Shown here piece by piece: positions 4,471 to 63,503 of a stretch of DNA of 64,000 nucleotides (its first letter is position 1; the number at the start of each line of letters is the position of its first letter). Both the position numbers and the translations under genes were made by a program. The DNA lies in contig NC_057749.1 of the NCBI RefSeq assembly GCF_004010195.1, forward strand, positions 7,213,416-7,277,415, in the 5' to 3' direction. The notes beneath the pieces are model-generated. The model saw only the letters and a program-made list of their open reading frames with translations, was not told the DNA's origin and did not search any database. The stretch is from Chiloscyllium plagiosum (lineage: Eukaryota).

Positions 4471-4943
4471 TATATTGACCCTTATTCTTTAACCACACAA
4501 AACTCCTTCCGCCACTCTTTGCTTCAGTCTATCAGCTTAACCTTTGACTGCCTATCCCTCCTCCCCTTAAATACATCTACACTCTTTGTCTCAAACATTC
4601 TACATTATGGTGAGCGCCAGACGCTTACTTACCCTTTGCTAAGGGGCAGCATGCACAAGCAAAAGGATGCTCCTATCTGAGTGAATGAGGAAGGAAATGC
4701 AGTGAAGTAGTCTTTCCCAGAAAGTCTTACATTATCTGGTGGGGACACAAGGAGCACCATCACAGCTATCCATCAGAGTCAATGGGGGTGAATGAAATCA
4801 GTTGGCGTTTGTTACTCATAGGCCCAATGTATTGTGTTTCTGTTGAGGTCGGAAATGGAGGTGAGTGGGTCCTGTTACTCTGGCTTCCTTCACCACCAAC
4901 CCCTCCCAAATCAGGAGGGGAGCGGGTGGTTGATTACATTAAC

Positions 4944-5172
4944 AGGAGAAAGTGAGGACTGCAGATGCTGGAGATCAGAGTCGAGAGTGTGGTGCTGGAA
5001 AAGCACAGCAGGTCAGGCAGCATCTGAGGAAACTGTGGTGCTGGAAAAGCACAGCAGATCAGGGAGCATCCGACGAGAGTGTGGTGCTGGAAAAGCACAT
5101 GAGATCAGGGAGCATCCCAGGAGAGTGTGGTGCTGCCTGACCTGCTGTACTTTCCAGCACCACACTCTCGAC
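4944..5172. mobile_element. Rearranged PLE terminal repeat: three tandem ~45-nt copies, then fold-back
   Basis: gtgtggtgctggaaaagcaca...cag(g)cagcatc repeated three times, then inverted copy; flanked by tacattaac (4935-4943, 5173-5181). Confidence 0.8.
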
Positions 5173-5181
5173 TACATTAAC

Positions 5182-6015
5182 TCACATCACCAGACCATAG
5201 CAACACGACGGCTGGAGGAAGAGCGCCTCATCTTCCGACTAGGAACCCTCCAACCACAAGGGATGAACTCAGATTTCTCCAGTTTCCTCATTTCCCCTCC
5301 CCACAGCTTGTCTCAGTCAAATCCCTCGAACTCAGCACCGCCTTCCTAACCTGCAATCTTCTTCCTGACCTCTCCGCCTCCGCCCCCACCCCCACTCCGG
5401 CCTATCACNNNNNNNNNNNNNNNNNNNNNNNNNNNNNNNNNNNNNNNNNNNNNNNNNNNNNNNNNNNNNNNNNNNNNNNNNNNNNNNNNNNNNNNNNNNN
5501 NNNNNNNNNNNNNNNNNNNNNNNNNNNNNNNNNNNNNNNNNNNNNNNNNNNNNNNNNNNNNNNNNNNNNNNNNNNNNNNNNNNNNNNNNNNNNNNNNNNN
5601 NNNNNNNNNNNNNNNNNNNNNNNNNNNNNNNNNNNNNNNNNNNNNNNNNNNNNNNNNNNNNNNNNNNNNNNNNNNNNNNNNNNNNNNNNNNNNNNNNNNN
5701 NNNNNNNNNNNNNNNNNNNNNNNNNNNNNNNNNNNNNNNNNNNNNNNNNNNNNNNNNNNNNNNNNNNNNNNNNNNNNNNNNNNNNNNNNNNNNNNNNNNN
5801 NNNNNNNNNNNNNNNNNNNNNNNNGCCCCTCCCCCAAGTCCCTCTTTCCTACCTTTTATCTTAGCCTGCTGGACACACTTTCCTCATTCCTGAAGAAGGG
5901 CTCATGCCCGAAACGTTGATTCTCCTGCTCCTTGGATGCTGCCTGACCTGCTGCGCTTTTCCAGCAACACATTTTCAGCTCTTGATCTCCATCATCTGCA
6001 GTCCTCACTTTCTCC
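5182..6015 (+). mobile_element. 5'-truncated Penelope-like element spanning the assembly gap
   Basis: Peptide TRRLEEERLIFRLGTLQPQGMNSDFSSF (GIY-YIG C-terminus); hammerhead motif 5890-5917; ends ctgcagtcctcactttctcc followed by tacattaac. Confidence 0.85.
5409..5824. other. Assembly gap
   Basis: Run of N. Confidence 1.
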
Positions 6016-6454: not shown

Positions 6455-6785
6455 GATGGCTCAGTGGTTAGCGCTGCTGCCTCAGGGACCTAGGTGCGAT
6501 TCCAGCTTTGGGCGACTGTCTGTGTGGAGTTTGCACATTCTAACCCCATGCCCCCCACGTCTGAATGTGTTTCATCCGGTGCTCCAGTTTCCTCCCACAG
6601 TCCAATGATGAGCAGGTTAGGAGTTGACCATGCTAAATTACCCATAACGTGCAGGGATGTCCAGGTTGGGTGGGTTAGCTGTGGGAAATGTGGGTTTACA
6701 GTGATAGGGTGGGATGCTCTTCAGAGGTTCGGTGCAGACTTGATGGGCTGAATGGCCCATTTCCGCACTGTAGGAATTCTATGAT
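6455..6785 (+). mobile_element. HE1-type V-SINE (older copy)
   Basis: tggctcagtggttagc A box, gactgtctgtgtggagtttgcacattct core, CR1-like tail. Confidence 0.8.
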
Positions 6786-7209
6786 GAGTAAGCCCACACT
6801 CTGGCCAATAATTGGCTACTCAGGGAAAAATCATAACTTTCTGTCTGTCTCTCTCACACAGCCTGTTGTTAAGTCAATGGCAAGTAAATCAGTCAAGTAT
6901 GAAATTAGGCGTCAATAATTTTCACGATAATTCATTTATAGGAGTGGTCCCCGTTGTAAGCTCACACGTACAAAAATGATCCCATACAGTGGTGTAATTT
7001 AAAATATCCGATGCATAAACATTTCTTGTACCTACAAGCAGCTATTTTATATTGTCCTGCATTGTGTTCCATCTTGTGTACAAATTGACTTATGAATGGC
7101 CACGAGAACAGAAGGCATTTACAACACACGGACTGCCTGTGCCTACAGAATGTGGCATTTGATGTCTGCTTCCTAACAACTAATCGCTGTGACACAGCAG
7201 ACTCACTTT

Positions 7210-7310
7210 CTGAAGAAGGGTCACCGGATTCGAAACATTAACTCAGCTTTCTCTCTCCACAGGTGCTTGCCAGATCCGCTGAGTTTCTCCAGCAATTCCT
7301 GTTTCTGCTT
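7210..7310 (+). mobile_element. Short PLE terminal fragment starting at hammerhead CTGAAGA
   Basis: ctgaagaagggtcaccggattcgaaacattaac...; flanks ctcacttt/ctcatttt. Confidence 0.7.
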
Positions 7311-7461
7311 CTCATTTTAAATTATTTGAATTAAAACAATTGAACTCAAATCAGTCCAAAGTAAAATGTGACAGCCCCTGTAGGAGGTGCTGCACCAACA
7401 GTCAAAATTTCACATGAAACTTAAATTAAATTCAAATTTCTTTTTGTGAGGTGATGATGTG

Positions 7462-7493
7462 CTGCAGTACTGGCAGTGCCCACCAGGAGGCAT
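7462..7493 (+). promoter_or_regulatory. Candidate CTCF site with upstream module
   Basis: cTGCAGTAC-tggca-gtgcCCACCAGGAGGCA resembles the CTCF core plus the TGCAG upstream motif. Confidence 0.45.
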
Positions 7494-7659
7494 AAAGCGC
7501 ACCAGCAACCACCATGTGTTCCTTCTCCAAGGTTCTGAATGTAACCACTGAAGAGAGACAGGGTGTTCTGAACCCCTCCTGGACCTGTTAATGGCCACAA
7601 TCTCCCTTTGAACTATTTTAATAAATCACTGAACCCAAATGAAACCCTAATCCAGCTTT

Positions 7660-8573
7660 TAAGTTTGCAGATGACACCAAAATTGGAGGTGTAGTGGACC
7701 GCGGAGAGGGTTACCTCTGAGTACAATGGAATCTTGATCAGATGGGCCAATAGGTTGAGAAGTGGCAGATGGAGTTTAATTCAGATAAATGTGAGGTGCT
7801 GCATTTTGGGAAAGCAAATCTTAGCAGGGCTTATACACTTAATGGTAAGGTCCTTGGGAGTGTTGCTGAACAAAGAGACCTTGGAGTGCAGGTTCATAGT
7901 TCCTTGAAAGTGGAGTTGCAGGTAGATAGGATATTGAAGAAGGTGTTTGGTATGCTTTCCTTTATTGGTCAAAGTATTGAGTACAGGAGTTGGGAGGCCA
8001 TGTTGCAGCTGTACAGGACATTGGTTAGGCCACTGTCGGAATACTGCGGGCAATTCTGGTCTCCTTCCTATCGGAAAGATGTTGTGAAACTTGAAAGGGT
8101 TCAGAAAAGATTTATAAGGATGTTGCCAGGATTACAGGATTTGAGCTATAGGGAGAGGTTGAATAGGCTGGGGCTGTTTTCCCTGGAGCATCAGAGGCTG
8201 ACCTTATAGAGGTTAATAAAATCATGAGTGGCATGGATAGGATAAATAGACAAAGTATTTTCCCTGGGGTTGGGGAGTCCAGAACTAGAGGGCATAGGTT
8301 TAGGGTGAGAGGGGAAAGATATAAAAGATACGTATGGGGCAACTTTTTCATGGAGAGGGTGGCACGTGTATGGAATGAGCTGCCAGAGGAAGTGGTGGAG
8401 GTTGGTACAATTGCAACATTTGAAGGCATTTGGATGGGTATATGAATAGGTAGGGTTTGGAGGGATATGGGTCAGGTGCTGGCAGGTGGGACCAGATTGA
8501 GTTGGGATATCTGGTTGGCATGGATGAGTTGGACCGAAGGGTCTGTGTTCATGCTGTACATCCCTATGACTCT
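7660..8573 (+). mobile_element. CR1/HER1 LINE 3' fragment (RT C-terminus and 3' UTR)
   Basis: KFADDTK at 7661; ORF MEFNSDKCEVLHFG...LVRPLSEYCGQFWSP...LERVQKRF; stops and frameshifts; (tatgactc) tail. Confidence 0.95.
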
Positions 8574-8679
8574 AAGTGAATGGATGACCATCTCTCAAAG
8601 GGGCACTGTCATGAATGATGTGGTTTTTCATTCCACACTGCCAATAATTAACTCCAGTGGCTTGGTGATGAGCACTGTT

Positions 8680-8918
8680 GTCTCATAGTGCTAGGCACCC
8701 AGGTTCAATTCCACCCTGTGGGCAACTGTCTGTGTGGCGTTTGCATGCTCTCCCTGTGTTTGCGTGGGTTTCCTCCCACAGTCCAAAGATGTTCAGGTTA
8801 AGTGAATTGGCAATGGAAAATGCAGGGTTACAGGGTACGGGCGTGGGTCTGGCTTGGAGGGTCAGTGTGGACTTAATGGACTGGATTGCCCCTGGTTCCA
8901 TCCTGTAGGGATTCTACA
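8680..8918 (+). mobile_element. HE1-type SINE, partial
   Basis: ggttcaattcc B box and V-SINE core. Confidence 0.7.
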
Positions 8919-10454
8919 GGCAGATGGGGGTGGGTTAACCCAAATAACTGGCTTGCGATACAGAGTGCAGGCAACAACATGGTTTCAATTCCTGGGTCAC
9001 TATGAAGGCCCTACCTTCTTAACTTCACCCCTCACCTGAGGTGTGATGACCCTCAAGTTACACCACTATCAGTCATCTCTCTTGAATGAGAGAGTGGGAC
9101 TATGAAACTTTACAGTTTTATTGACCCATGGGTAAAATCAAGCAGGATTCAAAGCTGTGTGGAGAAACTCCAAGAGAGTTTCAAGTCCATTTGTTTAATC
9201 ACATGACCTTGAATGTAAGTCTTTCCTTGCAAGTGCTCTCGATATTTTGTAATCAACCTGTTCAGAGAAATTATACATTTATCAAAGAGGTGGGACTTGA
9301 ATTTGGACTCTCTGGTTCAGAAGTAGGAGCTACCACTGCACCATAAGTGTCCCTAAAAGTGCTATAGATACCTATTTAAACAGTGCCTTTTACTGTGTGT
9401 CTTAACAGTAGCATTGATGTACTAGTAAGAGGCGTGAGCCTGTGAGTCTCACAGAGGGGAGTTCAGGAATGCATGGGGAACTTCCAGCCCCAGGTGACGT
9501 CCCACAGACCCTTATCGGAGAGAGGGTACACCTGGAGCTCATGAGAGCATGGCATCTGCGGATCATGCATACCACCCATTCCAATTGAACAGCACATCAA
9601 CATGCACTCTCTAAGGAAAGATATGAAAAGCCTGGCAACTGAATTATAAAACTCCTCCTCCCACCACCTTCTCAACCACAGGGTACCTGTTGCCACTGCC
9701 AAACGGCAAGAGAAAGACCATGAGGCACATATCAGCCCTTCAAGTTCCATGACCGTAGGTTCATGGAGATATCATTGCAATGGAGGCCCTGAGATTTGAG
9801 GAGGAGGAAGTGGATGAGGTTATGGGAAAGGGGTTGGTGCCTGGGCAGCGGGGGTGGAGGGGGCGTTAGAGGGCTGGGTCTGTACTCTTGCCAAGTGGCG
9901 GGCTGGTTAATTGAACGGCTGTCACACAGTGCTGCTGTCAGCCTCACAGACAGGCTTAGCATCTTCATCAGATGGAGACGGGATGCAAATGTCAATCAAT
10001 CCTCATTGCAGGAGAACCCGAACACGACGAGAGGTCACGTCCACTTTCCCGCCGATCAAAGTGAGCCATCCATCAATAGTCTCGCTCGTCAACTGTCACA
10101 TTAAGCTGCACGCAATTGCATTGCTTTATCAAGCTCTCAACCAGCTCTGAACAGAGTTGCTATCTCCCACCGCAAACATAAGGTAACCAAGTTTGTTTGG
10201 GGGGCTGTTGGGGGAAGGGATGGAAAAGCTTCTCCAATAGGCTTTATGTCAACAAGAATTTCCCTTCCCAGCCCAGCGAAGATGGCTTTTGAAGTTGCTT
10301 GCTAATAAGGCACTGCAGTATTTACTGCATGGTTGGCCCTGACTGTGTTTTTCTCACCTGGGAATACATGTAATTAGTATAGAATAATAGTATATGGAAG
10401 ACCGTTTGAAGCAAATCATCTCCCTGCCAGTGAGCTGGAGGCTCAAAGGAATAG

Positions 10455-10741: not shown

Positions 10742-11439
10742 CCATATATAGAGAAACTGGTTGGGAAAAAGAAAAGGAAACTGCCCCCAGCTTCCACTCA
10801 GCGTGCCTAAGCTAGAATGCCGACACTGCAATGGACTTCATTGGGTTGTGTGGAGACAGCGAATCAGGAATCACAGGCTAGCACAGACTTGAGAGAGGCC
10901 ATTTGGCCCACAAAGCCTGTGCTAGCTCTTTCAACGTGTAATTGAAGCCTAACTCTTTTCCTATAACCTTGCATGTTTTTTTTAAACTCCTTCAAGCAAT
11001 TACTTTGAATGTGACTGAGAATTTCTTCCCGTAAGCCTATGTACTATTGCATTCCAATTCAAACTGCACATTATGCAAAAAGTAAATTTCTTAATGTCTT
11101 TGGTAGGACAAGGGCAACATCAGCACGGCCAGCATCTGTTTTAAAACATTTACATTTACCAATCCTGATGTGTCATCCTGCCACAAAGATTTTACAAGAG
11201 AGGAAAAGGTCATTCAGCCCATCATGTTCCACATTAGTCATCAAGCGTCTCTCTATTCTAATCCCATTTCAAGTGTTGCTTGAAAAGCTTACTAAATGTC
11301 TTGGGCTCCTTTTGTTGGCTGGAGCTACGAAAAGGCAGAGTTTAAAAACTGGGGCATTTCTGTGCAGAGTTTTTAAATTTCCAAGCATTGACTCAACTTG
11401 AGCAGCAACTCTTGTGAAGCAATGGCTCTTGATTCTGTG

Positions 11440-11797
11440 ATGAGGAGGTAGACAAGGTCAGAAATCACATGACACTTGGTTTTGGTCCAACAGGTTTATT
11501 TGAAATCACAAGCTTTCGGAGCTGAATTTAGGTATGTAAACTGTCACAATGCAGCGCAATTTAATGGCCATTAAATGGCTCAATTAATTGAGCCCGACCA
11601 ATTCCCTTGTCATCTGCTATCTATTTATCTCCCTGCACAAAGGCACAGCTCGCTTGGTAATACAAAACGTGAGTTTTGCTATCAGAGTGTGCTATCAAAG
11701 GTTTATGCCCTGCATTCATCAGGACAAAGGGGCGAAAGGTTGTGATTTCAAACAAACCTGTTGGACTACAACCTGGTGTTGTGTGACTTTTGATTTT
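11440..11797. mobile_element. Fold-back PLE insertion enclosing a copy of local DNA
   Basis: Inverted arms ~11453-11518 and 11733-11797 of the family seen at 17.1k, 50.3k and 63.3k; centre 11522-11727 duplicates 12872-13078. Confidence 0.85.
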
Positions 11798-13039
11798 GGA
11801 TCTGTGTTCGACCAGAAACCCTAGGTCTCACTCCAACAGATTACAAGCACATCACTTGCCTATTCCTTGCGTTGCAAGGTGTGAGCGAAGAAGAACATTC
11901 TATTAGCCAGCATTTATATTATTCCGTTTATTAGTTTAGCTCGAATAGCGAGGGCTGATGGCATGATCAGCAGACGCAGTTCAGGAAAAAAAAGTGATCG
12001 AAACTGATGGAGCAACTGAAGAGAAATTAACATGCAGAGTGGAAATGATACAATTGCTCGAGTAGTATGGGGTTAATGAGTCTATCTGCCGATGTTAATT
12101 CGGGGCCCTTGCACTGCCAGTCTCAGTAATTCCTCAAAGCCAGCCTGTCTGATGATACTGTCAGGTCGTGGAGGCAAAAACACAAACCTACACATCTGTA
12201 TAGGTACGGTTGATAAGCAACGGAATCACACTGCAAAAAAAAAGGTCATTAATTACAATTTTTCTTATTCCAAGCAAGCCTGATATTAAATGTCTTTATT
12301 TAAACAATTGTAATTAGTGTACTCATTACTGCATTAATATTAATAGGAGTGCTAATACTGCATGCGTCCTACTCCGCTATCTCTCGAATCTTTTGATAGC
12401 AACCAGAACTTCCAAATTACTGGAAAGGTGTCTATTTCCCGCCCTGAATTCCTAGGTGTGCGTTTGTAATGCAAGCTGCCTAAGTAGGTTTGTCATTCTG
12501 TAATTGCAGCTTACCCCTCAAGAGGAGGGGCTCCATCCACACCGCTGACAGCCAGGTCTAATTAAAGCCGGGCAGGTTTGCAGAGGCAATGCTTCCATTA
12601 TAACTAGGGGACAGAGGCATTTGGAAGGTAGATCAGAAAACAAGAGGGGAATGTGTAATGTTAAAATGGGAGCCAAATTACTTCTGGTTTTACTATCCAT
12701 GAGCTTCTAATGTGAAGGCAACACTTTATCGTGAAACCCATGTGCAATGTCAAAGAAGAACAAGCAGATTATCAAAAATTCTGACGTACATGCAATTGCT
12801 TTCCACAGACCTTATTCCTGTTACGCTTTCAGTTAACACATACCATTGCAAATTGCTGTCAAAATTTCCCACTGAATTTAGCTATGTACACTGTCACAAT
12901 GCAGTGCAATTTATGGTCACTAAATGGCTCGATTAATTGAGCCCCAAACAACTCCCTTGTCATCTGCTATCTATTTATCGCCCTGCACAAAGACACAGCT
13001 CGCTTGGCAATACAAAACTTGAGTTTTGCCATCAAAGAG

Positions 13040-13300
13040 TATGTTATCAAACGTTTGTACCCTGCGTTCATCAGGACAGAAATACCAACTTTCAAAGGGA
13101 GTAACAATTTATATGCGTGAGCCTCAGGTGTTGATTGAATGGCAAGTTTACTCTGTTCAAGACAGTACCAGAAAACTATTGACCTCCATACTTTATATCA
13201 ATTCAAAACAAAGCACAATGCCTGGACGTGTTTTTTTTCTGCTTGTAAAGGAGAGGTCACTGCATTTGGTTATATGTAGCTTGTGGTAAGACTAAGTGAG
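13040..13300 (-). mobile_element. Old Penelope-like fragment
   Basis: ttcatcaggaca...tttcaaagggagtaacaatttata, homologous to 120-205 and 51935-52130. Confidence 0.55.
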
Positions 13301-13424
13301 TCACATTGTGAACATCTCTTTTTCATCAGCAATATATAACAGCAGGTATAATGTACTGATTAGAATATGCTTTCCATGCTATTGCCCTTTTGCCTGCTTT
13401 CTTAAAGGCAGAAGGCTGTTGTGT

Positions 13425-13590
13425 TTGAGTGATCTGGTCCAGGTATGAGTGAGCTGGACTGGATGTGAGTGAGCTGGTCCCAGTGTGAATAATCTGGACG
13501 CAGTATGAGTGAGTTGGATTGACTGTGAGTAATCTGCACACAGTGTGTGAGCAGTAGTGAGTTGGAGCAGGGAGCAATTGGACTGAACTG
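13425..13590. repeat. Degenerate 20-bp minisatellite
   Basis: Units such as gagtgagctggactggatgt / gagtgagctggtcccagtgt / gagtaatctgcacacagtgt, about 7 copies. Confidence 0.75.
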
Positions 13591-13819
13591 CATCCAGAAG
13601 GGCAAACTAGAATGGAGGTGAGGGAGCAAGCTGCAAAAGATTCCAGGACTCGAGCTTCTAATGTAATCAAAAGTCTGATTGAGGGGCATTGAGGTATATC
13701 CACTTCATAAGTGTTCAGGATAAGCAATTACTGTATATTTCTGATTGAAGGGGATACACACAAGAGGTACAGTGAGGACTGAGGCATTGAACATAAACTT
13801 ATATTGAAGCATTGAAAAC

Positions 13820-14390
13820 CTATGGCACAGAATGTAGCCATTTACCCCATCCTCTATGTGCTGGCTGAAATTACAATCAAGTGTAATCTCCATATCCACC
13901 TCTTAGTCCAATAGACCTAGGAGTTATGGCACTTCACATGCTAATGTGAATCCTAGAGATTTTTAAAAGTGTTTTGAGGGTTTCTGCCTGCAGTAATAGT
14001 TTTTCAGGCAATGAATTCCACACCTTGTCCTTCTCTGGCCGAAGAAAAGTCTCCCCAACTTCCTTTTAATTCTCTAACCAATAGCTTTTAAAATCCATCT
14101 CCCCCTGGTTACTGACTTACCCACTAAGGAAAACAAGTCCTTCCTATTCATTCCATCTAAACCCCTCATCATAGTTTACGTGGAATAAATCTTTGTAAAT
14201 CTCTTCTGCGCGTTCACATCCCTCCCATAAAGTGCAGCCATAACTGAACACGGTGTTTTAGTCAGCTCTAGAATGACAATCCTGCTCTTCATTGATCAAC
14301 CTCAGTTGACGTATGAAAGTATCCCATCGAATCTCTCAAGTAATTTTTCTACCTGTTTTGCAACCCTTGGATTTCTGTGCAGATATACTC
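13820..14390 (-). mobile_element. Old CR1 LINE fragment
   Basis: Degenerate similarity to the CR1 3' ends elsewhere in the window. Confidence 0.5.
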
Positions 14391-14567
14391 CTAGCTCCCT
14401 CTCCTCACATTAACTTTTTTTATTGGCTGGGATTTAAGTCCATTGTCTTGCTGGGAGAGCCAATGAGAGACCCACATTAGCCTGATGAATGAAGGTCTAA
14501 CAACACTCAAGAAGCTTGAAACCATCTGGTTCACTTGATTGGCTCCCCATCCAAAAACATCCATTCC

Positions 14568-14714
14568 TTTCCTATCTTCCTGGTGGTGGAAATTGAATAA
14601 AGATTCGTGCACTTTGTGTCTTTCACTGTGTCTCACACCTGCACACACACACCATGGGTGCTGGGGAAAAAGTAAGCACTACCGCACTTAGGTGGTAGTG
14701 TGGAGGTTAATAAA
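14568..14714 (+). mobile_element. Tx1-like (L1 clade) 3' end inserted in a LINE fragment
   Basis: AATAAA, (CA)n, hairpin cactaccg-cacttagg-tggtagtg, A tail; TSD aaaaacatccattcc (14553-14567, 14715-14729); homologous to 41290-41380. Confidence 0.7.
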
Positions 14715-14978
14715 AAAAACATCCATTCCGTCCACCTGCAACACCCAATAACAGCAGTGTGTACCAATCACAAGACTGTTGGCATTCACCACATTTAAAT
14801 TACGTTTCAGTTTTGACCCTGGTCAGTCCTGAACAATAATACTTTGGACATTAGAGACAGAGTAGCATTCCATTAACAGGGTGTAACCACGGTATAGTAT
14901 TAATGATGGATAGTTCGTGTAGGTTCATTCCTGTAGCTGCAGCTACCACGACAGTCAATAAGACTGGTGACAATGTAA

Positions 14979-15166
14979 TTAAATCAGAAAGTGCTGGAGA
15001 GACTCAGCAGGTCTGTGGAGAGAAAGAAACAGAAGTTCTGAAGAGTTACTTTGGACTGTTAACTCTGTTTCTCTCTGTCTCCACAGAGACTGCCAGCCTT
15101 GCTGAGTCTCTTCAGCCCTTTCTGTTTTTATGTCAGATTTCCAGAATCCACAGCATTTTGCTTTTA
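14979..15166. mobile_element. Old fold-back PLE insertion
   Basis: Inverted arms cagaaagtgctggagagactcagcagg / ccttgctgagtctcttcagccctttctg; degenerate TSD ggtgacaatgt/ggtgatgatgt. Confidence 0.7.
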
Positions 15167-17097: not shown

Positions 17098-17592
17098 GGC
17101 AAAGTCACCATAGTCCTGTAAGGATGTGGAGGTGCCGGTGTTAGCCTGGGGGGGATTGAAGTTAAAAATCATCCAATGCCAGGTTTTAGTCCAACAGCTT
17201 TATTTGGAATTACAAGCTTTTGGAGCGCTGCTCCTTTCTAAGGTAGCTAGTGGGGCAGGATCATAGGACTATAAGTTCTGTGTCCTATGATCCTACCCCG
17301 CTGCCTACCTGATGAGGGAGCAGCTCTCCAAAAGCTTGTACTTCCAAATAAACCTGATGGATTATTACCTGGCATTGGGTGATTTTTGACATAGTCCTAC
17401 AAGACTGTAGGGCTGTTCTCTCATTAGAGAAATAGCTGACTAGTATGGTTTAACCTATACCTCAAGCAAGGGGGGGGGATGTTGAGAAGGAGAGTCCTTC
17501 ATGGTAGCTCCAGCTGATGCAGGAATTGAACACATGCTACTGGTGTCATTTTGCATTATAAACCAGCTGCCCAGCCAACTGAGCTAACTGAC
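17098..17592 (-). mobile_element. Family B tRNA-derived SINE interrupted by a PLE palindrome
   Basis: Matches 935-1430; ends cagccaactgagctaac. Confidence 0.7.
17123..17389. mobile_element. Fold-back PLE insertion
   Basis: Inverted arms around ~17270; hammerhead-like ctgatgagggagcagctctccaaaagct; TSD catagtcctgtaag/catagtcctacaag. Confidence 0.85.
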
Positions 17593-50255: not shown

Positions 50256-50376
50256 ATGATGTGGAGATGCCAGTGTTGGACTGGGGTGGACAAAATCAGA
50301 AGTGACGCAACACCAGCTTTTAGTCCAACAGGCTTAGTTGAAATCACAAGCTTTCAGAGCACTGCTCCTTTATCAT
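50256..50376 (-). mobile_element. PLE terminal fragment
   Basis: atgatgtggagatgccagtgttggactggggtggacaaa... ending in the reverse hammerhead motif. Confidence 0.75.
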
Positions 50377-52699
50377 AGAAAGACAGACAATGAGGGCATC
50401 CAAACCTGCTTGGAAAGGTTCTAACTGGGAGGTCATCTCCAGGTCACAGACCTAGCTGCTCTTTGTTTTAATATGCTTGCATCAACTTATTCAATGATGT
50501 CATTGCACACCTCTGGAGGAAGTGGGACTTGAAGCTAGGTTGTCAGTTCTAGAGACAGAAACAGAGACACTATCCCTGCACAATTGACCCAGCCCTCACC
50601 AGTTTGGCAAATTCCAGTCAGCCTTTGGCAATAGTCCTCAAACAGCCATTAAACATACTTAATTGGCTACTCACGGCTGGTGGATAGGTAGCCCTGCACC
50701 TTATCCCTTCACAGCAGATCTCCAAGAAAATAACACGAGGGTGGGATGGTATTGGCAAACTATCAATGTGCATCTGCTTAGAATTCCACCAAACAGTCTC
50801 TGTACTCAGCCCCATTAGCACCTAAACATCAGCCCTAAGTTGTTCCATCCTTCAGTCGAGCATCAGCATCAAGTGATTTAAATCAATTGAGAAATCAATT
50901 ACTGCCTCAGAAAAACATGCTCCCTCAAAGGAACATCTCCATCAATCAAAATCCCATTATGCAATGTTGATTTTATCGCTGAATATTAAAGTACATATTC
51001 TTTAGATTTTCCTTAAGCTGATCTTCTGAGTCTGATTAAACAACAACTAATTGAGTCCAATATTATGGCGATAAGATGCTGATGGAGAGTATAAAAGAGT
51101 AGCAACATTAACCGTGAAGCAGCAGAAAGCAATCTTCTTTGTCAGTCTTCCCCATGGGAGAAGGTCACTTATCACAGTACACAAAGTAAAGCTTCACTAT
51201 CAGCCTTGAGTATCTCACCTTAGTAATGCGAAAGACAGGATTAACTTCCATGTATGTCATGGCTTGGCAGGTTGGTAGCAATCTCACCTTGGAACCAGCA
51301 AGCTCTGTCCTGTGTGACGATTCGCACCTACAATTTGGAGGTTACATCATTCAGCAGCAGACATGAAACCAACCTGCCCACTTGCTCTGGCATAGACCAA
51401 GTGGCACAATGCAAGAAACACCACCAGGAATGCGTCAATAATATCTTCTCAAAGTTAACAAAGTCAGGCTCATCTGTCATTTGCCTGACTAGTCTTTGTG
51501 AAATTCTGCTAAACACAATGTGGCTGCCACTTTTTTCAACCTGACTCTTCAAATTCATCCATTGTTTGTGAAGTGTTAGGTGAATTGATGATGCTAAATT
51601 GCCCACCGTGTTCAGGGATGTGTAGAGTAATACAATAAGGGAGTGGGTCTCGGTGGGATACTCTTTGGAGGGTTAGTGTGGACTTGTTGGGCCAGTGTGG
51701 ACTTGTTGGGCTAAATGGCCTGTTTCCACACATCTATGATACTTTTAGATGTTTCTAAGTGCAGAAGTGTGACATTGTTGCAAGTCCATTTTTCCAAAAC
51801 TGTTGTTTTAACTAGATCCATGAGTTCAATGATATATAAATTGTCGAAGGTAACTCAAAGTTAAACATTAATTTCACAGGTTGACCAAACCAAATTTCTT
51901 GGTGGTTCAGAACTTGAATATTGATGAAAAAAGAGAGATACTTTTGAAGCTTTTTATCTTGTGCTCATCAGGATACATGTAAAGATACCAAATTTCAAAG
52001 TGAGCAATAATTTTAATGCATGAGCAAAAACTTGCTGATTGGTTGGCAGGTCAACTCCATTTGGTCAAGGTGTTGTTATGAAGAATGTACCGGGCAACTC
52101 CAGTCCCCTAAGCTTTGTTTAATTCAATGAAAGGAATTAATGCCTTTTTTCAGCCTAACCCTAACCCTGTATTTTTGAAAAGCTTACAATAGGCTGTTTC
52201 TGGCAGCAAGATGCTTTGACATCACACTTGGCATTTCTAATTCAATACACAAGATGTAACCGCGTGGCATTTTGCAAGAATATGAAAGCTTGAAACGGCC
52301 CTGAAATAGTTCATACCCTTCCACCCAAATGGCCAATTCAGTCTAAATCCACATAATACCAACAGCAAGTAAGTGCATTCAAAACAGAATTTCAAGAGTC
52401 AGTAGGCTTTATAAGGTATGTAAAATATTGATGTAAAAAATTCTGACAACCGAGGCGCTGAAGGGAAAATGAAAGAACAATAAAACCGCAGATTTTATTT
52501 AGAAGATGCACAACCAAAGTAAATCAATGAGGTGTCACATCTTATATCTGAAGAAAGCTCTGAAATAAGAGAATTGTGGCTGGAGGTTTCTGAGGGACAT
52601 GTTAGTTCATGTACCCCATGGCTTTATAATAGTACAAAAAATGATGGCCTCTGACTGTTCCTGCTTTGTTGGGCAAGGTGGACCTCATCCTACTGGAAA

Positions 52700-53584: not shown

Positions 53585-54295
53585 AGATGTAGGTTTGCTC
53601 GCTGAGCTGGGAGATTCATTTTCAGATGTTTCATCACCATACTAGGTAATTTTCGCAAGGTTTGTGAAGGTTTGCAGCTCAGATTGAGGTTTAGGGTGTA
53701 GGTTTGCTTGCTAAGCTAGCCAGGTAATGAAACGTCTGGATATCAAACCTACAGCTCAGTGAGCAACCTACACCTGATACTAGGTAATATCTTCAGTGAG
53801 CCTCCGGCTGAAGCAGTGGTGGTGAAGCCCGCTTTCTATTTATATGTTTGGGTTTTCTCGGGTCGGTGATGTCATTTCCTTTGGTGGTGTCATTTCCGAT
53901 TGTGATGTCACTTCCGGTTCTTTTTCTTGGGGGTGGTAAATGGGATCCAAGTCAATGTATTTGTTGATAGAGTTCCTGTTGGAATGCCATGCTTCTAGGA
54001 ATTTTCATGCATGTCTCTGGCTCGTCCTAGGATGGATGAGTTGTCCCAGTCAAAGTGGTATCCTTTCTCATCCGTATGTAAGGATACTAGTGAGGGTGGG
54101 TCATGTCTTTTTGTGGCTAGTTGATGTTCATGTATCCTGCTGGCTGGTTTTCTGCCCGTTTGTCCGATGTAGTGTTTGTCACAGTTCTTGCAAAGTATTT
54201 TGTAAATGACATTAGTTTTGCTTGTTGTCTGTATTGGGTCTTTCAAGTTCATTAGCTGCTGTTTTAGTATGTTGGTGGGTTTGTGGGCTATCATA
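53585..54295 (-). mobile_element. Penelope/Poseidon-type retroelement 3' part (GIY-YIG endonuclease pseudogene)
   Basis: NVIYKILCKNCDKHYIGQTGRKPASRIHEH; TSD cttaacccct (53575-53584, 54299-54308); inserted in a family C SINE. Confidence 0.92.
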
Positions 54296-54527
54296 ACTCT
54301 TAACCCCTTTCTGAAATGGTCCAAGCAACCATTAAGTTCAAGAGCAATTGGAGGTCGGCAGGAATTGCTGAGCTGGCCAGAAGCACCCACAACCAGTGAG
54401 ATCATAAAGAAAAAAGAAACATTAGGAGCTATTGAGGCAGGTGATAAAAAGCTTGGTCAAGGAGGAAGATATAAGGAGTAACGTAAAGACTGAAAATCAC
54501 TTGTTTCCAAGACAGTGCGTAACAATC

Positions 54528-62750: not shown

Positions 62751-63318
62751 GATTAAAAAAAGACTACCAGAAGCTGATAAGCCATCTTCTCAAAGAAAAT
62801 AATAACAATGGCTAGCAATGCCTATAAATAGACTTTTCGTTCTACAGAACTTGAATATTGCAGTAGAAAAGACACATTCTACCAAAACGTTTTGTCAGCG
62901 TGACCTGCTCGTCAGCTTTGGGGGTTCATTTGCCCCACTCAGTGACAGGGATGGAGGGGAAAATGTGCAGATGCTGAAAGCTATGGCCTGTTCTTGCCTC
63001 CCAATTCACTGACCCCCTCCCTCAGACTCACAGGCCATGATACCTGAAAGAAAACAGCATCGTGGTGTTGGTTCTCCTAAAGACTTGGCTTCCGGTGATT
63101 TCTACCACTCAGAAGCTGCGGGCTTTCCATTGTTCAGCAATTGTTGAGTGAGACAGGACATCAGAGGCGAGGCCTGTGATTGACCTCGAAATTCACTGTC
63201 AGTTCTTACTTGCTGTCCATGAGGGTGAAGGAGAGAGGGGAGAGTTGACACCTCCTGGCCCCCGACACTTAGACTGCAACATGGAAATGTGTATGTTCAT
63301 CTAGCTTCCTCTAAAATG

Positions 63319-63503
63319 TTAAAAATTCATACAACATCAGATTATAGTCCAACAGGTTTATTTGGAAGCACTAGCTTTCAGAGCGCCGCTCCTTCATCAG
63401 CTGGTTGAACTAATGTTTCCAATTAAACCTGTTGGACTATAATCTGGTGTTGTGTGATTTTTAACTTTGTACACCCCAGTCCAACACCTGTTCCTCCACA
63501 TCA
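63319..63503. mobile_element. Fold-back PLE insertion with minus-strand hammerhead motif
   Basis: Inverted arms; minus strand CTGATGA-a-ggagcggcgctct-GAAAG-CTA; TSD ttcctctaaaatg/ttcctcgaaaatg. Confidence 0.85.

Follow-up and report, generated by a model that had tools for sequence, protein, structure and literature searches.

How did 205 nt of host DNA come to lie between two inverted arms that bear the marks of a Penelope-like element (PLE), as a direct copy of sequence little more than a kilobase downstream? The structure lies in the 64,000-nt stretch of DNA analysed here (hereafter the window), where the initial annotation described inverted arms around a direct copy of downstream DNA and supposed that a reverse transcriptase or a repair polymerase had jumped onto nearby sequence during integration and then returned to the element. 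The arrangement itself is borne out in both its parts, the arms and the copy. Template switching onto local DNA at this locus is supported by the analyses below, and we infer that the polymerase was that of the host and that it acted after integration.

A two-copy segment and its parent

A repeat search and local alignment of the window identify 11522-11726 as a direct-orientation copy of 12872-13078, both on the plus strand, with four collinear direct-repeat blocks joined by the local alignment into a single match. The two segments agree at 184 of 204 aligned bases, with 20 mismatches and three indel events, which gives 90.2% identity without gaps and 88.5% with gaps, close to the 85-90% that had been judged by eye. 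Fourteen of the substitutions are transitions and six are transversions (K2P 0.106). The parent begins at 12872, 1073 nt past the end of the right arm, and the distance from copy to parent is approximately 1.07-1.35 kb. The genome-wide uniqueness check proposed in the initial annotation gave a simple answer: in the 3.56-Gb assembly a 206-nt query returned two of two first-look candidates, the copy and the parent (E = 1.6e-66). The annotation had allowed that the segment might turn out to be a multicopy repeat or a part of the element; the captured 205 nt is present in only two copies in the genome, lies outside the PLE family and is not multicopy.

The direction of copying can be read from an older multicopy repeat that the parent enters. 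The parent consists of unique DNA from 12872 to about 13002, followed by about 75 nt of the start of this repeat (13003-13170, plus strand), which runs unbroken across the parent's right end at 13078. A genome search with 12700-13300 returned, besides the query and the upstream copy, 29 weak matches (67-83% identity), all of which begin at query position 301 or beyond and 23 of which cross query position 379, equivalent to 13078. The copy of the older repeat at window positions 51898-52057 likewise aligns from 13003 to about 13153, through 13078. In the arm-flanked copy the repeat is interrupted, so that the upstream copy ends inside it and an arm stands next. Because the older repeat continues past 13078 but breaks off in the copy, 12872-13078 is the parent and 11522-11726 is derived from it. 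This direction is shown, as is the origin of the template at this very locus, which the annotation had likewise preferred to a circulating repeat. The junction between unique DNA and older repeat that it saw within the copied segment is also real, but the repeat starts at or before 13003 rather than at about 13040.

The older repeat, which we leave unnamed, is found in the window at 13003-13170, 51898-52057 and 39-184, with approximately 66-83% identity between copies and at least 29 weak matches genome-wide. It has a TCATCAGGA motif of its own, and no match was found between it and the PLE arms in the fetched loci. A degenerate minisatellite with a 20-nt period lies nearby at 13423-13542 (at least four units, 68-73% identical to the reference unit), and the window contains a run of 416 N at 5409-5824.

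The fold-back arms and their family

The paired cores of the arms, 11453-11518 and 11733-11798, are 66 nt each and 82% complementary (54/66). The left arm (11437-11521) has its element sense on the minus strand, and its core pairs with the right arm; it continues about 16 nt past the right arm's end point, and this outer part (11437-11452) is the family's extra tail, about 35 nt in length, less some 19 nt lost by internal deletion, which places the start of the element near 11437. The right arm (11723-11798) has its sense on the plus strand and its short-tail end at 11798. According to the initial annotation both arms stop where stem II of a hammerhead meets GAAA. The inner end of the left arm reads CTCC-GAAAG (minus strand) and reaches four bases into the 3' strand of that stem. 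The inner part of the right arm is GACAAAGGGGC (11723-11733), followed by an 8-nt deletion that removes the loop and 3' strand of stem II, and then by GAAAG. GACAAAGGGGC is a mutated CUGAUGA box with the 5' half of stem II, and this variant or a near form of it occurs in at least six other loci. The inner stops of the two arms differ, because the right arm, when read with the 8-nt gap, extends inward to 11723. The locus therefore carries hammerhead remnants only: a left arm that begins at CTCC-GAAAG, and a right arm that has GACAA for GATGA and no 3' half of stem II.

Each end of the copy meets the inner end of an arm to the base. At the right junction (11723-11726, plus strand) parent (13075-13078) and right arm share the tetramer GACA, a microhomology of 4 nt, and at the left junction the overlap is just 1 nt. 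Arm-exact bounds together with these 1-nt and 4-nt microhomologies indicate template switching. Nine fold-backs of the same subfamily, compared by eye, share a short common centre in which an antisense and a sense box stand a few nucleotides apart. This canonical centre of about 35 nt is absent from 11437-11798, and the 205-nt copy occupies its place. The 9-mer TTCATCAGG at 11715-11723 (parent 13067-13075) is equal to the antisense hammerhead box that canonical fold-backs have at the same spot; it is present both in the last bases of the parent and in the canonical centre that was lost here, and may have guided the choice of template. The flanks yielded no clear target-site duplication: they match best over 6 nt (p=0.12) or over 4 nt (p about 0.8).

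The structural hallmarks of the arms support their assignment to a multicopy, hammerhead-bearing repeat family of Penelope-like type. A 25-nt core of the arm occurs five times in the window against an expectation of 0, in the two arms and in three other loci, and three of the four arm loci in the window are inverted pairs with heads in and tails out. Genome-wide, an arm query gave 1370 first-look candidates; among the 29 best matches, 15 lie no more than 200 nt from a heads-in partner. Exact 13-mer anchors in fold-back arrangement recovered 1625 places with an anchor gap of 200-450 nt and 1095 with a gap of 120-199 nt, at least 2,720 in total, while control searches with reversed patterns recovered 0. 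The heads-in fold-back is the ordinary form of this PLE family, and only the captured centre is unusual. The remaining arm loci in the window are heads-in fold-backs at 17179-17387 and 63310-63487 and a solo arm at 50270-50375; one of these two fold-backs has arms that run past the hammerhead with a loop of about 11 nt between them, and the other has unequal arms.

Copies of the family read CTGATGA-A-GGAGC..GCTCC-GAAA-GCTT, with one extra A and a 5-bp stem II. This fits the minimal PLE hammerhead as set out in the available part of PMC4209133: a CUGAUGA box, an extra nucleotide before stem II (10.1), a G10.1-C11.1 pair, GAAA and a palindromic 15.2-16.2. A tail of about 35 nt is carried by one arm only, both here and in 12 of the 15 fold-backs inspected by eye, and the PLE signature given in the accessible portion of PMC8557442 is an adjacent inverted 5'-truncated copy with a one-ended tail of 30-40 bp. 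Reverse transcription by a purified PLE protein, which cuts both strands and extends them, begins at two internal sites that bracket the tail (PMC11167929). The earlier view of the arms as a hammerhead-bearing PLE thus agrees with the family's hammerhead, its inverted truncated partner and its one-sided tail.

Rfam returned no hammerhead match in the window (gathering score), in 11000-15000 (E up to 10) or in five loci with intact-looking arms (E up to 10), and no other credible family in the window, that region or the five loci. Since minimal PLE hammerheads have no closed helix III, this result does not exclude a hammerhead. Among 52 ORFs from the loci and the window compared with Pfam, no pair of reverse transcriptase and GIY-YIG domains of PLE type was found next to any arm. 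A stop-free segment on the minus strand at 53998-54456, 3.6 kb from the nearest arm (50270-50375), gives the only GIY-YIG match, below threshold (E 6.9e-4; 20.3 bits, cut-off 22.6), and could be what remains of a PLE endonuclease.

A second capture and the relative ages

We surveyed 40 fold-backs including this one, taken from 54 fetched loci and three pieces of the window, and compared 24 of the centres with shuffled controls. In this sample, which is biased in that 25 loci were picked for wide spacing, and with flanks mostly of +/-1.4 kb (+/-4.8 kb for ten), a unique local copy occupies the centre in one of the 39 other fold-backs, L054, for a total of two of 40. The first anchored search contributed 25 of its 50 listed places to the survey and the second none.

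Locus L054 (fold-back at L054:4724-5251; G000:C1:129267576-129277575), which is known from the assembly only, contains a filler of 42 nt (44 nt if a shared TC is counted) that is 100% identical to DNA 55 nt past its short-tail arm. The donor lies just downstream in direct orientation, on the same side as for 11522-11726, an agreement in side and orientation that could be chance (1 in 4) with n=2. An exact direct duplication of 87 nt flanks the filler and takes in the turning point of the fold-back itself. A clear target-site duplication of 12 nt (4724-4735 and 5155-5166) frames the element, and the junction microhomology is 2-3 nt at one side and 0 at the other.

Other candidate captures were rejected. 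The 115-nt centre of L028 was considered as foreign DNA, but 241 first-look candidates identify it as element-internal sequence. Local matches to other centres proved to be a microsatellite (L037), neighbouring copies of the element (L035, L039 and L050) or multicopy repeats (L041 and L052). For the fillers of 20-50 nt in L013, L025 and L038, no nearby sequence matched better than the shuffled controls.

If the arms of a fold-back begin alike, they offer a clock against which a captured centre can be set. In 29 of 32 fold-backs the within-pair arm identity is higher than the median between loci, and in some pairs (L056, L042, L021 and L035) it reaches 98.3-98.9%, with L042 at 100% in another comparison. 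Pairs at 98-100%, taken with the within-pair excess, imply that arms are alike at their origin. At arm positions equivalent to 11778-11783 and 11468-11473 we often see GTTGTG in one arm and GTCATG in the other (L009-L032), with GTCGTG in some copies. GTTGTG and GTCATG are two decay products of one CpG, and raw divergence between arms therefore overstates age.

At the locus under study there are 12 differences in 66 positions between the arms and 20 in 204 between copy and parent, which is not a significant contrast (one-sided Fisher p=0.057; p=0.066 without CpG-type changes). At L054 the filler and its linked duplication show 0 differences in 131 positions, while the arms show 8 in 122 together with two indels (Fisher p=0.0026), and the left arm's closest match is its own right arm, ahead of 69 other arms. 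With arms initially alike, this contrast makes the L054 rearrangement younger than its insertion. Moreover, since the 87-nt duplication includes the turning point of L054, its template was the DNA of that insertion and not element RNA. These observations point to a template switch at L054 by host replication or repair after integration, and not by the element's reverse transcriptase. Of the earlier proposal, template switching stands, but the timing at integration and the role of the reverse transcriptase are unsupported, given p=0.057 here and a capture at L054 that is younger than its insertion.

Mechanism, relatives and wider meaning

The reading we prefer, with a probability of roughly 0.5, is a template switch after integration, primed by microhomology, at the hairpin-prone centre of an existing fold-back. 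The starting point would be an old heads-in insertion of the PLE 3' module, with two inverted 5'-truncated arms of which one carries the extra tail. A host polymerase replicating through the inverted repeat, where the fork may stall, or repairing a break at the hairpin tip by synthesis-dependent repair, would leave the element, prime on GACA approximately 1.3 kb away on the same chromosome, copy 205 nt from 13078 back to 12872, and return to the other arm with an overlap of 1 nt. The net outcome would be a hairpin tip of about 35 nt lost and a second, dispersed copy of local DNA acquired in direct orientation. The replacement of the subfamily's canonical centre by the copy, the GACA junction and the presence of TTCATCAGG in the parent's last bases all favour this reading, as does L054 as an independent and younger case. 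Direct-orientation templated insertions at quasi-palindromes are, moreover, already described in the available part of PMC8421209.

Several points weigh against a switch after integration. The age gap at this locus falls short of significance; arms made from two different RNAs would be unequal from the start, and the copy could owe its apparent youth to gene conversion with the parent. Described insertions of the MMBIR type are mostly shorter, with templates within about 100 bp, in the portion of PMC8421209 that treats them, against 205 nt and 1.07 kb here. The overlap at the left junction is a single nucleotide, and the cases number two, with L054 taken from the assembly.

The main rival, less probable but still substantial, has the capture occur during integration itself. 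The PLE enzyme would cut and prime on both strands and yield two opposed 5'-truncated cDNAs, the tailed one from the distal start site and the other from the proximal site, and the reverse transcriptase or a repair polymerase would bridge them by way of the exposed single-stranded right flank. The two-strand activity of the purified protein and its two internal start sites, which define the tail (PMC11167929), agree with this, as do the one-sided tails of this and most inspected fold-backs, the exact bounding of the filler by the arms' inner ends and the variable inner truncations that are frequent in the family. In both cases, too, the donor lies in direct orientation on a flank that resection would expose. 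The contrast between an unchanged filler with its duplication and diverged arms at L054 speaks against it, however, and so does the duplicated block with its turning point, which calls for a DNA template; the trend at our locus runs in the same direction as at L054.

In a minor version of this capture at integration, the reverse transcriptase passed from the element's RNA to a nascent host transcript made at the locus and then returned. Template jumping is a general property of such reverse transcriptases, and nothing specific at the locus favours the idea. The copy bears no splice or poly(A) mark and the L054 duplication requires a DNA template, so that we regard an RNA-templated jump as improbable.

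Still less probable are two independent PLE insertions in opposite orientation around a duplicate that already existed, or copying in reverse with the arm-flanked copy as the original. In their favour stands the great abundance of the family, by both the first-look candidates and the anchored fold-backs counted above. Nevertheless, the copy ends match the arms' inner ends to the base, the arms are the family's standard pair of one long-tail and one short-tail member, and the older repeat is continuous at the downstream copy and cut off in the arm-flanked one. The initial annotation had also raised the chance that the duplication predates the arms. Among the contigs of public sequencing runs that we compared with window positions 10800-13600, no orthologue with the duplicate but without the arms was found.

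The same contigs show that the structure is present in relatives. An independent contig from the same organism (run X1) covers 11496-11769 with one difference. In related organism B (run X7) a contig spanning 11485-11763 with nine differences crosses both junctions and extends 37 nt past each of them; further contigs cover 11014-11505 and 11803-13425 (62 differences, 3.8%). In related organism C (run X8) a contig over 11758-12976 passes from the right arm through the flank into the parent with 49 differences; a 130-nt contig (11496-11626) has only 26 nt on the arm side and, under a 31-nt rule, was not counted as evidence. Run X12 gave no cover over 11552-11645 and was left out. The insertion with its captured centre is older than the split from organism B, and very probably older than the split from organism C. 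Measured by K2P distance, 0.106 for the event and about 0.04 for these splits, it is about 2.7 times as old as they are. The empty site expected in orthologous loci did not appear among the contigs over 10800-13600: organism B has the filled insertion and organism C has the insertion in part. Contig joints that skip 211-247 nt were considered as empty alleles and rejected, as they contain letters of the canonical centre and so belong to other fold-backs in the genome. An assembly artefact has next to no probability: inverted PLE structures are known to trouble assemblies (PMC8557442, in the part available), but the copies here are 10% different, the arms are 18% different, and both junctions are bridged by independent contigs from the same and from a related organism.

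Set beside insertion units of endonuclease-positive PLEs, as far as the accessible sections of PMC8557442, PMC4209133 and PMC11167929 describe them, the locus has the same heads-in, inverted, 5'-truncated arms with a tail of about 35 nt on one arm, and family copies have the same order of CUGAUGA, one nucleotide, stem II and GAAA, with a palindromic AGCU after GAAA. It differs in its centre, which is unique host DNA from 1.07 kb downstream, in having no complete hammerhead in either arm, and in having no linked ORF for a reverse transcriptase or GIY-YIG domain. With MMBIR/FoSTeS, MMB-TI and synthesis-dependent MMEJ it has in common that the insert was copied from a template close by on one chromosome and that the site is an inverted repeat able to form a structure; the microhomology here is 4 nt at one junction and 1 nt at the other. 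The lost hairpin tip here and the flanking duplication in L054 also have counterparts among microhomology-mediated templated insertions. Templated insertions at quasi-palindromes, with direct-orientation templates and tip deletions, form a described class (PMC8421209), and synthesis-dependent MMEJ is the subject of PMC2943611, PMC5728401 and PMC5068794. The MMB-TI tool targets insertions of at least 10 nt with templates within 100 bp, according to the accessible text of PMC8421209; L054 fits this scale, with 42 nt and a donor 55 nt past the arm end, in contrast to 205 nt from 1.07-1.35 kb at the present locus. Unlike the somatic templated insertions that have been described, the events here are germline, fixed and ancient.

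LINE-1 elements offer a further comparison, in that twin priming yields inverted 5'-truncated halves by priming on two strands, and template-jump chimeras join host sequence to cDNA. In twin priming, however, different parts of one element are inverted, while here a single 3' module makes up each arm; the donor is local DNA, and the capture at L054 is younger than the insertion. We found no report of host DNA captured inside PLE fold-backs in the open-access literature searched by title and the start of the abstract, which is no proof of absence. The mechanism class is ordinary and the fold-back is an ordinary PLE form; the captured local DNA is a real but small example of template switching.

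The locus nevertheless provides a clean and datable case in which a few hundred non-coding bases were duplicated over about 1 kb without unequal crossing-over or transposition. Abundant PLE fold-backs can seed such local duplication events, and their arms serve as an internal clock that bears on the late steps of PLE integration. The initial annotation saw here a route for short-range duplication; L054 supplies a second case, but generality has only two of 40 fold-backs to draw on. In this sample the effect is rare, its biological weight is small, and it is probably an error of host replication or repair. It is tempting to speculate that, when a two-strand-primed PLE intermediate is resolved, host DNA from the vicinity, or nascent RNA, is regularly copied into the junction between the two cDNAs. 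We consider this unlikely; if it were true, PLE activity would systematically generate dispersed duplications over short distances in PLE-rich genomes, and thousands of fold-backs would form a readable archive of them.

The neighbourhoods of two surveyed fold-backs yielded observations of their own. At L038 a homeodomain exon (L038:1086-1535, minus strand; Pfam Homeodomain, E 5e-21) lies within about 100 nt of the PLE fold-back (1501-1781). At L054 the 3.4 kb from 6601 to 10000 is a GA-rich simple repeat that is stop-free in all three frames of each strand.
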